Source: a virus (taxonomy: Duplodnaviria; Heunggongvirae; Uroviricota; Caudoviricetes). From it: a stretch of DNA of 12,923 nucleotides. The notes under the pieces are model-generated. The model did no database searches, was not told the origin of the DNA, and was given only the letters and a program-made list of their open reading frames with translations. The stretch's first letter is position 1, and each line of letters opens with the position of its first letter. The stretch is taken from positions 1-12,923 of IMG/VR virus record IMGVR_UViG_3300029079_000072; one strand, written 5' to 3'. The translations under genes and the position numbers were made by a program. Below are positions 10,002 through 11,490 of this stretch, piece by piece.

Positions 10002-10475
10002 TTATTTCAGGCACTGAGTGCGGATATAGTCCTGTGCCCCTTCCAGTTGCTTGTGCATCGTCATCAGCCGCTCTCTGAGGGTGAAATAATCCCGTGTAAC
10101 GGTGTCTGCCAGTTGGGGGCCGGTTGCATTATCCACGCCGGAGGTGGTGGGGGCTTCACGCACGGAGCCTGGACAGGTGGCGTTGATCCGCAGGCGCTTA
10201 CGACCAGCGGCAACGTCAGCGCGAAGAGTTTCATTTTCAGCTCTCGCATCGGCTAATTCCCTCGAGTATTTTGCATCGAGCGCAGCAACATCGCGCTGGC
10301 GCACCTGCATATCAGTAATGGTTGCGTTCGCCAGCTTCAGTTCACTGGCTTTGTTATCGCGCTGCGCTTTGTAGGTAATCGCGTTATCACGGTAATGGTC
10401 TGTTGCCATCCACAGCGCACCACAGGCCACCAGCAGAATAACGATAAACGCGGAAAGCATTCGGTTTATGTTCAC
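10002..10475 (-). CDS. Rz: Rz i-spanin (inner-membrane spanin subunit)
   Basis: ...[72 protein letters not shown]... aligns with lambda Rz almost throughout (from memory). The track start is GTG at 10475; an ATG at 10458..10460 is an alternative start. Confidence 0.9.
10064..10249 (-). CDS. Rz1: Rz1 o-spanin lipoprotein, embedded in the +1 frame of Rz
   Basis: [22 protein letters not shown]...[30 protein letters not shown] parallels lambda Rz1 (MLKLKMMLCVMMLPLVVVGC...[30 protein letters not shown]); lipobox VSAC; entirely inside Rz. Confidence 0.85.
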
Positions 10476-10603
10476 CCCAGCAACCCCGACGAAGACAACA
10501 TCATCCAGGCCATGGAAAGAAAAAGAGCAACCAGCATTAGTGAAAATGAAATGCCGACAATTACACAGAGGATCTTCGCCAGCGTTATGAGTTTGTCTGA
10601 CAT
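10472..10603 (-). CDS. Small hydrophobic membrane protein (43 aa), candidate holin/antiholin-like
   Basis: ATG at 10601..10603 is preceded by GGGAGGA. Translation [43 protein letters not shown] is about 30 aa of continuous hydrophobic sequence. Its stop TGA overlaps the Rz start. Confidence 0.5.
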
Positions 10604-10617
10604 GCTTAATCCTCCCT

Positions 10618-10800
10618 TCACGATTTCAACGCAATGACCAGTTTTGCCAGCCCATACAGCATCGGGGACACAGCAACACCGACCGCCACCCACTTAATGG
10701 CAAAAGCCAGTGCTCTGCTGATGTCATCAGTTACAGGCGCTTTCAGTTCAAGGCCATTTTTCATAGTCAACCTCAACAGAATTCGTTTACACTTCGCCAT
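10618..10800 (-). CDS. Small protein (60 aa) with basic N-terminus and C-terminal transmembrane segment
   Basis: ATG at 10798..10800 is preceded by AAGGGAG. Translation is [60 protein letters not shown]. It ends 14 nt upstream of the 43-aa gene. Confidence 0.5.
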
Positions 10801-10956
10801 GTTCTCCCTTGCCTTACTCAAGGTCAGAAACACAAAACCTCGCTTGGTGCCAACAAACGGGGTTTTTACTTTTATTCACTTACGTTTCGCCAGTTCGCAG
10901 GATTTCGTGTTATCCGCCCGCGTGGCCATTCCTCATTTTTCAGCAAAATATTCTGC

Positions 10957-11490
10957 TTATCTGTCGATACCCCAGCACGCCAGCGCGCTCTCCTGGTCAC
11001 GACGGGATACCTGACCGTAACAGTTGTTTGAACGAATACGGCAGTCTCTGCCACCGTCCTTAATCCACCAGCGAATCGCTTCGCAGGCACCTTTTCGATC
11101 ACCAGCATTAATTCGTCTGTAAAACGTCGACGGGAAACACTTACCGGGACCAATGTTGTACGGACAGAATGACGCGATCCCCGCTTTCTGGGGTTCGGTC
11201 AGCGGCACTCTGATGTTTTTCTCCACCCACGCCAGCGCTTTATCACGCTCAATGGCGTTAACCTGGTCGCATTTTTCCTTCGACAACTTCATGCCCGGAA
11301 CGACAGGTTTGCCATCCACCATGATGGCACCACGGCAGATGGTCCAGATACCTGCACCATCACGGTATGCTGTGGTGTGGTTGCCTTCCTTTTCATCCAG
11401 AAACTGGTCGAGAATGTCAGGCGCAGGCGCACCAGCGGCAATCAGCGCCAGAACGGCAGCCGACAGGCCGTATTTGATTTTGGTGTTCAT
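10957..11490 (-). CDS. SAR endolysin (T4-lysozyme-like, GH24)
   Basis: N-terminal Gly/Ala-rich weakly hydrophobic signal-anchor-release segment (YGLSAAVLALIAAGAPA), then an E-x8-D-x5-T catalytic arrangement (EGNHTTAYRDGAGIWT). Overall resemblance to P21/Qin-type prophage lysozymes from memory. No obvious Shine-Dalgarno sequence. Confidence 0.88.
   Translation of the reverse strand: MNTKIKYGLSAAVLALIAAGAPAPDILDQFLDEKEGNHTTAYRDGAGIWTICRGAIMVDGKPVVPGMKLSKEKCDQVNAIERDKALAWVEKNIRVPLTEPQKAGIASFCPYNIGPGKCFPSTFYRRINAGDRKGACEAIRWWIKDGGRDCRIRSNNCYGQVSRRDQESALACWGIDR

Follow-up and report, generated by a model that had tools for sequence, protein, structure and literature searches.

IMG/VR virus record IMGVR_UViG_3300029079_000072 (positions 1 to 12,923) is a stretch of 12,923 nucleotides, hereafter the window, that carries a phage lysis cassette without a holin gene upstream of the endolysin gene R. 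Between R and the spanin genes Rz/Rz1 lie two small open reading frames (ORFs), A and B, encoding membrane proteins of 60 and 43 aa. Coordinates are positions in the window, and all cassette-relevant genes lie on the minus strand (Table 1). An earlier analysis made from the letters alone (the sequence-only reading) proposed that A and B are a relocated pinholin/antiholin pair controlling the endolysin, or else a membrane module of another function in the late operon. We find that the remaining genes are the distal part of a cassette of the 933W/phage 21 type, comprising the signal-anchor-release (SAR) endolysin R, ORF A, ORF B and Rz/Rz1.

The R product matches PF00959 (E = 2.4e-24), and its E-8-D-5-T motif can be read directly in the sequence. 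The protein begins MNTKIKYG, and K4 and K6 are followed by a segment, LSAAVLALIAAGAPAPDIL, that is weakly hydrophobic (Kyte-Doolittle hydropathy, KD, 1.74) and 47% G/A/S/T. A lysozyme domain together with a weakly hydrophobic, Gly/Ala-rich N-terminal segment after basic residues marks R as a predicted SAR endolysin. This R type, at 80% identity or more, is present in 370 phage records. The R start codon has no Shine-Dalgarno sequence before it (preceding letters ...TTTAATATATCC), and the stop codon of a truncated DUF968 ORF lies 59 nt upstream. Searches of the window by tblastn with P21-type S, EssQ and lambda S found no holin (best E = 0.4). These results confirm the sequence-only reading on one point, namely that R follows the end of an unrelated gene, with neither an upstream holin nor a good ribosome-binding site.

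At the other end of the cassette, Rz matches PF03245 (E = 2e-47), and the o-spanin lipoprotein gene embedded in it, Rz1, matches PF06085 (E = 4.4e-20), as expected of a two-component spanin. ORF B had been described as ending in an overlap with the Rz start. Its stop codon TGA does share letters with a GTG (GTGA) that opens a 157-aa Rz ORF. RefSeq places the Rz start at an ATG 11 nt past the B stop, giving 152 aa, and this ATG is the sole usable start in relatives with a different Rz N-terminus. Because those alleles can start only at the ATG, we regard the overlap as possible but not certain.

We examined the DNA on both sides of R by megablast. Positions 9300-11654 are 100% identical to many E. 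coli genomes and positions 11653-12923 are 100% identical to others, and none of 5426 complete E. coli genomes spans the point 11653/11654. Base-by-base comparison places a junction exactly there, with two bases common to both sides: the left block agrees at 100% identity with the related locus L001 as far as 11654, and from 11653 the right block does so with L004. The junction joins the 5' two thirds of the nin-region DUF968 gene to the 163 bp that precede R in intact prophages. The DUF968 product is 239 aa long, versus ~348 aa in intact prophages (the full-length gene is seen in L004), and the last 34 codons of its ORF come from foreign DNA beyond the junction. Measured in L001 and L004, intact relatives of one side each, the lost stretch amounts to ~5.9-8.1 kb. 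In intact relatives it holds RusA, a Q-type antiterminator or DUF1133, a DNA methyltransferase, tRNA genes, cargo, the 71-aa class II holin S and YdfR/DUF1327. Eleven contigs, drawn from several metagenome studies of the human gut, encode the same 239-aa fusion product with identical neighbours and no holin. Since the exact fusion recurs in this way, we take the junction to be real and not an assembly artefact. Likewise, six longer metagenome contigs with the same junction have no holin.

Identity to L001 stops near 7851, where the first terL codons meet the interior of J. This second deletion removed all head and tail-shaft genes and left Nu1 intact. The locus is therefore a twice-deleted cryptic remnant of a lambdoid prophage. 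An illegitimate deletion with 2-bp microhomology took out all DNA from mid-DUF968 to a point 163 bp upstream of R, and another took the head and tail genes. The upstream holin is thus missing because the deletion at 11653/11654 removed S. Judging by lambdoid gene order, we infer that the late promoter region went along with Q and S. Since all three are gone, the cassette in the window is probably either silent or dependent on read-through coming from the nin-region side.

Table 1. Positions of the features discussed, in window coordinates; (-) denotes the minus strand.
Feature	Position	Strand	Family matches
Hok-family toxin gene	12711-12923	(-)	
90-aa ORF	12271-12543	(-)	
Truncated DUF968 (ydfU-like) gene, 239 aa	11550-12269	(-)	PF06147 profile positions 1-48/171; phrog_96 positions 1-207/334
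First deletion junction, 2-bp microhomology (GG)	11653/11654		
Endolysin R, predicted SAR type (RrrQ/933W-R type), 177 aa, intact	10957-11490	(-)	PF00959, phrog_7
Terminator-like hairpin and U-rich tract, between R and ORF A	10834-10866	(-)	
ORF A, 60 aa	10618-10800	(-)	phrog_1115
ORF B, 43 aa	10472-10603	(-)	phrog_4906
Rz i-spanin, 157 aa from GTG or 152 aa from ATG at 10460	10002-10475	(-)	PF03245, phrog_13
Rz1 o-spanin lipoprotein, embedded in Rz, other frame	10064-10249	(-)	PF06085, phrog_3198
Lipoprotein with TonB C-terminal domain	9364-9744	(-)	PF03544, TIGR01352
Nu1, intact	7896-8405	(-)	Pfam match
Second deletion junction, terL' joined to J'	7851-7924	(-)	
Tail-tip gene J without N-terminal part	5476-7818	(-)	Pfam J-domain matches

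Relatives of the cassette retain the holin. Annotation by tblastn covered 80 IMG/VR loci with a relative of Rz at 83-100% identity. Wherever the DNA reaches far enough upstream, a 71-aa S lies upstream of R, directly next to it in some loci, as in phage 21, and separated from it by a DUF1327/ydfR gene or remnants in others. This S belongs to PF04971, the phage 21 holin S family (E = 7e-33), and its alleles keep the dual-start N-terminus MYQMEK, encoding their own antiholin form. Relatives with S upstream share the R-A-B-Rz block at 95-100% identity, and among them are the plaque-forming phages PhiR12_1 to _5. These five and PhiR5_2 have the order S, DUF1327, R, A, B, Rz, with A and B 97-100% identical to those of the window. 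As relatives with A and B carry S upstream, A and B are not the holin. The sequence-only reading had named a holin found upstream in a longer contig as one result that would speak against a relocated holin; relatives provide it, and the longer contigs of the deleted lineage do not. A survey of 279 Shiga toxin (Stx) phages describes pinholin, SAR endolysin and Rz/Rz1 as the conserved lytic system and does not mention the small genes (PMC8136144).

The joint between S and R is a cargo slot too. In most relatives it holds the DUF1327/YdfR gene or its remnants, as in L001 (8783-9118) and L002 (6411-6920), and R then lies ~150-600 nt from the preceding gene with an equally poor ribosome-binding site.

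The cassette thus resembles that of phage 21 and 933W in its SAR-type PF00959 endolysin, in its PF03245/PF06085 spanin pair and, in the relatives, in the 71-aa dual-start PF04971 pinholin upstream. It differs in that the window has no pinholin, Q or late promoter region, and in that the canonical cassette, as described, is devoid of the one to three small genes with a single transmembrane domain (TMD) between R and Rz, here A and B. The K-12 prophage Qin is likewise a decayed lambdoid remnant, with hokD, a small gene in the rem position and ydfU (DUF968) on one side, an essQ-ydfR-rrrQ-rzpQ lysis block, and nohA (Nu1-like) joined to tail-fibre genes (nohA-stfQ). In contrast to the window, Qin has kept Q and the pinholin gene essQ, and has no gene between rrrQ and rzpQ.

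Both small ORFs have strong ribosome-binding sites, as had been stated: AAGGGAG, 5 nt before the ATG, for ORF A, and AGGGAGGA, 7 nt before the ATG, for ORF B. ORF A matches phrog_1115 (function class unknown, E = 1.9e-46), and RefSeq calls it as a gene for a hypothetical protein. A database-wide protein search returned 122 homologues in Escherichia and Salmonella, all annotated as hypothetical, and the GTDB species-representative genomes contain no match. The ratio of nonsynonymous to synonymous substitution rates (dN/dS) averages 0.22 over pairs of 9 unique alleles. The FAIKW, SP and YG residues are invariant in the family, and these motifs are common to relatives at ~40-50% identity. The first 37 residues include eight K/R, the cytoplasmic part has a net charge of +5, and the C-terminal segment is moderately hydrophobic (KD 1.88) and forms the one predicted TMD. 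The protein looks tail-anchored, with its N-terminus inside. An AlphaFold2 model (predicted local distance difference test score 76) places the conserved MKNGLE-x-AP motif in a loop between a short helix (residues 2-14) and a long one (residues 23-59). When 1.84 billion representative proteins were searched with a profile built from 25 A-family members, 22 small proteins were retrieved, among them no holin. Two distant family members have other surroundings in phage genomes: a tape-measure gene is near one of them, and the other adjoins a portal-like gene.

ORF A has a near-invariant second in-frame ATG, M13 (10762-10764), preceded by GAGG, from which a 48-aa form would lack a 12-residue stretch carrying four basic residues. 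Many gene callers annotate this shorter form, and several distant homologues begin at M13; the two starts could be a dual-start arrangement. At two related loci, L071 (1570-1751) and L073 (2222-2403), tblastn returns ORF A in two pieces in different reading frames, which suggests a frameshift and therefore that A can decay in some lineages. The same two loci have ~950 bp of additional DNA between B and Rz.

ORF B matches phrog_4906 (function class unknown, E = 4.9e-23), and here too RefSeq calls a gene for a hypothetical protein. The database-wide search returned 129 homologues, all from E. coli. ORF B is full length in all 276 matching phage records, the majority of them Stx1a- or Stx2a-converting phages; these records make up about three quarters of the 370 with this R type and include most Stx2a-converting phages. 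Its mean pairwise dN/dS is 0.45 (20 unique alleles), compared with 0.10 for R (52 unique alleles) and 0.34 for Rz (26 unique alleles). For diverged pairs the annotated frame gives 0.23-0.52, and the other two frames ~0.6-3.4. The best-conserved part is the N-terminal two thirds, not the 3' end. A single strongly hydrophobic TMD (residues ~11-31, KD 2.89) is flanked by a short N-terminus with K4 and K10 and by a 12-residue C-terminal tail. Together these results indicate that A and B are genuine genes under purifying selection, each predicted to encode a small single-helix inner-membrane protein.

The homologue of ORF B is unannotated in a large share of Stx-converting records (Min27, PA2, Ss-VASD and many LC6xxxxx), and the ORF is intact in all of them; in Min27 (L012) it lies at 2501-2629. 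The only match among GTDB representatives is a 328-bp contig (L098, NZ_JPLE01000251.1) from the draft assembly of Xanthomonas pisi, and is most likely contaminating E. coli or phage DNA. We also considered that ORF B is a vestigial Rz N-terminus, and rejected this: by eye the two have no convincing similarity, and the ORF is selectively maintained.

We searched for known families behind the two proteins. Neither has a Pfam match at E ≤ 0.1 (PF04971, DUF2730 and PF01848 included), an NCBIfam match, a match to a PHROG lysis family (only PHROGs of unknown function were found) or a PADLOC-DB defence match at E ≤ 1. Searching the Protein Data Bank sequences with A and B profiles returned nothing meaningful. 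The two are not related to each other (hhalign probability 3.2%). ORF A does not resemble a releasin, as its hydrophobic helix is C-terminal, its cytoplasmic part is +5 and DUF2730 is not matched. Nor does the cassette resemble a Hok-like type I toxin locus, with no PF01848, no Rfam family and no promoter or terminator on the opposite strand. Literature searches found no genes described between R and Rz apart from Ant.

Expression of A and B was considered from the elements around them. A hairpin with a U-rich tail lies inside the late operon, ~90 nt past the R stop. Its folding energy is -12 kcal/mol in the window versus -21.6 and -24.2 kcal/mol (z ~-5) in L002 and L004; a G>A change weakens the window copy, and at least 44 of 84 related loci have the strong form. 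The hairpin lies at ~5430-5470 in L002 and at ~5200-5245 in L004, and its loop occurs as GGCACC, GGCTGC and GGCAGC. A simple consensus scan detected no sigma-70-like promoter between the hairpin and A or B. No terminator-like hairpin lies downstream of B, the sole one being upstream of A. In an intact phage, A, B and Rz/Rz1 would be made only by the Q-modified polymerase, late, along with S and R. Late-only expression of A and B is suggested because a strong hairpin lies upstream and no promoter of their own was detected; therefore a role in the lytic cycle is favoured over one in the lysogen.

The slot between R and Rz is mosaic. Across the 80 loci and the annotated genomes at least seven different contents occur: A and B; a 231-aa KilAC-type antirepressor with a small gene, A2, and B; A2 and B with a 5'-truncated A remnant (residues 23-60) and a 28-aa peptide, C28; Ant and B; Ant, B and C28 with extra DNA; a 50-aa hybrid that combines an A-like N-terminus with a C28-like helix; and a 32-57-aa A2-like peptide ending IRWW. 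The four phages inspected (BP-4795, Min27, Lys19259Vzw and phi191) have the order S, R, ant, B-homologue, Rz. The Ant insertion of 933W, Min27 and BP-4795 occupies the identical slot after R, and the B homologues between Ant and Rz are 65-79% identical in the four inspected. Unlike ORF A, which stands in its place and has no similarity to it, Ant is a P22-like antirepressor, a soluble regulator of 189 aa; ORF A is a 60-aa, predicted tail-anchored protein.

Each slot architecture inspected or matching a query has a small one-TMD gene whose end is no more than ~20 nt from the Rz start. The last codons of this gene (GGGGTGA or GGTGGTGA) form the purine-rich stretch before the Rz ATG. The small slot genes thus behave as exchangeable modules that are not locked to one lysis protein. 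At L004 (4688-4774), L050 (2433-2606), L066 (1091-1243) and L096 (597-737), otherwise different one-TMD proteins end ...IRWW before the next gene, and the IRWW codons (CGT TGG TGG TGA) double as a ribosome-binding site. This ending looks like a portable joint through which small genes are inserted with translational coupling kept.

Taking these results as a whole, we consider it rather probable that the window holds a deleted prophage cassette in which A and B are genuine late-operon membrane genes, not a relocated holin. Their function is a separate question, on which we are more tentative. Somewhat short of even odds, in our judgement, A and B would be non-essential accessory lysis proteins that act in the inner membrane alongside pinholin, tethered SAR endolysin and i-spanin; they would adjust when or how efficiently lysis occurs and would not carry out a step of it themselves. 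Non-essential or regulatory genes are found among the holin, endolysin and spanin genes of other phages, such as P2 LysA, P1 LydB and T4 RI, and antiholin activity of proteins of this type has been shown experimentally. These proteins differ from A and B in having no sequence relation to them and other sizes and topologies. P1 also has extra holin-like proteins (PMC9025707). In phage Mu, which has no holin, the releasin gp25 (DUF2730) is a membrane-tethered protein that helps the SAR endolysin leave the membrane; gp25's TMD is N-terminal (N-out, C-in), and its 73-aa domain in the cytoplasm is anionic (PMC9239132). Like ORF A, gp25 is small and has its bulk in the cytoplasm, and it is encoded a few genes downstream of a SAR endolysin that has lysines in its short cytoplasmic N-terminus (PMC9239132). 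ORF A differs in its C-terminal helix and its cationic 30-aa N-terminal part, and the relatives of the window have a pinholin.

Several points weigh against an accessory lysis role. The slot also receives Ant, which has no obvious role in lysis. Two distant A-family members lie away from recognisable lysis genes, and the free swapping of small genes among cassettes argues against a tightly co-evolving partner. Such genes are absent from the cassettes of lambda, phage 21, DLP12 and Qin, which work or exist all the same. Moreover, the promoter scan that bears on late expression was of the simple consensus kind.

An alternative that we regard as rather doubtful is that A and B are morons: membrane cargo of the late operon with no part in lysis, carried at a gene boundary that tolerates recombination and serving, for instance, superinfection exclusion, acting on a host membrane target or protecting progeny. 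The second proposal of the sequence-only reading, a membrane module of another function in the late operon, is compatible with all our findings. The contents of the R-Rz interval vary in presence between conserved neighbours, as is typical of morons; the slot holds two types of Ant, and the small genes are shuffled as modules. One of the distant A-family members away from lysis genes has a neighbour that matches phrog_35629, filed in PHROGs under 'moron ... membrane protein'. Accessory genes also sit at other joints of the cassette: the S-R joint takes DUF1327/ydfR, and Rz is followed by Bor or a TonB_C lipoprotein. However, A and B have no promoter and terminator of their own that we could detect, a weak result given the crude consensus scan, and the hairpin upstream makes expression in the lysogen, usual for exclusion genes, unlikely. 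Nor did PADLOC return a match, and a small TMD gene directly abuts Rz in every slot inspected or matching a known query. Roles of A and B beyond those named here share what probability remains, a modest part.

A relocated pinholin/antiholin pair standing in for the upstream holin is now very improbable, and we consider this proposal largely refuted. It drew on the small size and membrane character of both proteins, on the SAR endolysin in the cassette and on the lack of a holin in the window. The holin was lost by deletion, and all intact relatives with A and B have S, so their co-occurrence makes replacement of the holin by A and B unnecessary and contradicts it. Topology and homology, two of the checks that had been suggested, gave negative results. 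P21-type pinholins have two TMDs (a SAR-like TMD1 and a pore-lining TMD2) and a highly charged cytoplasmic C-terminus, whereas A and B have one hydrophobic segment each. The two proteins end ...ALKS and ...SSSGLLG; beyond the best hydrophobic window of 19 residues, A has 1 charged residue and B has 0. Besides the absence of Pfam, PHROG lysis and NCBIfam matches and of holins from the A profile search, the hhalign probability against the S family is 2.2% for A and 0.1% for B.

The TMD of A does weakly resemble pinholin TMD2 (QWAAIGV-LGSLLFGL). Within the window, S finds its best local match in the helix of A (KWVAVGV.../QWAAIGV...), and 11 of 2000 shuffles reach as high a score, in a test biased by TMD composition. 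The predicted orientation of the A helix (N-in to C-out) is antiparallel to that of pinholin TMD2. One metagenome scaffold of 554 bp in the European Nucleotide Archive (L097, 43-222) encodes an in-frame hybrid of 59 aa (P0119), with residues 1-36 of S joined to residues 37-60 of ORF A, and continues with ORF B, an A remnant and C28. The joint is a 6-bp identity, AGTGGG, and the hybrid, a single occurrence, would be a pinholin with TMD2 swapped for the helix of A. We rejected derivation of A from pinholin TMD2 as unproven, given the hhalign probability, the 6-bp joint in one scaffold and the biased shuffles, and regard the hybrid and the local S/A match as a curiosity and not as evidence of common descent.

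Just as improbable is that A, B or both have no protein function and are leftovers, or leader ORFs whose translational coupling supplies the Rz start with ribosomes: the small-ORF 3' ends do contain the purine-rich stretch ahead of the Rz ATG, these ends are the conserved part common to otherwise different peptides and A fragments persist as remnants at some loci, but selection acts at the amino-acid level (dN/dS 0.22 and 0.45, frame-specific for B), B is most conserved away from its 3' end and intact in every phage record, and A keeps its invariant motifs in distant relatives.

The remainder of the window is context. The lipoprotein gene after Rz has the lipobox LAVGC and encodes 126 aa from a GTG (108 aa in the RefSeq annotation). 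It occupies the Bor position of lambda and 933W, is found in many relatives and lies outside the lysis pathway. Its family, phrog_1267, carries the PHROGs label 'Rz-like spanin', which looks a misnomer; the TonB-domain protein might interfere with TonB-dependent uptake of phages or colicins. Beyond J come lom, a gene for a tail fibre and genes for tail-fibre assembly. On the opposite strand, at 324-992 (+), a gene for a class I SAM-dependent methyltransferase is wedged between tail-fibre assembly genes at 1-267 and 1047-1631, and the latter contains a full-length match to Rfam IS009 (RF02111; 225 bits) at 1090-1288 (-).

The apparent holin-free lysis cassette is thus a case of ordinary prophage decay and is not to be counted as a new lysis architecture. 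What remains are two uncharacterised families of small proteins, of which B is widespread and under-annotated in the lysis cassettes of Stx phages. More speculatively, and in our estimate unlikely, the one-TMD gene that abuts Rz (B or an IRWW-type peptide, often accompanied by an A-type gene) would be a fourth part, so far unrecognised, of the pinholin/SAR-endolysin/spanin pathway of Stx and related lambdoid phages. Such a gene might time the firing of the pinholin, hold or release the tethered endolysin, or gate the i-spanin. In Stx phages, according to a passage in one paper, toxin release largely coincides with phage-mediated lysis (PMC3430580), and a late membrane protein that shifts the timing of lysis would therefore matter for toxin output. 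If the small gene is indeed a fourth part of the pathway, it would influence the timing of both lysis and Shiga-toxin release.

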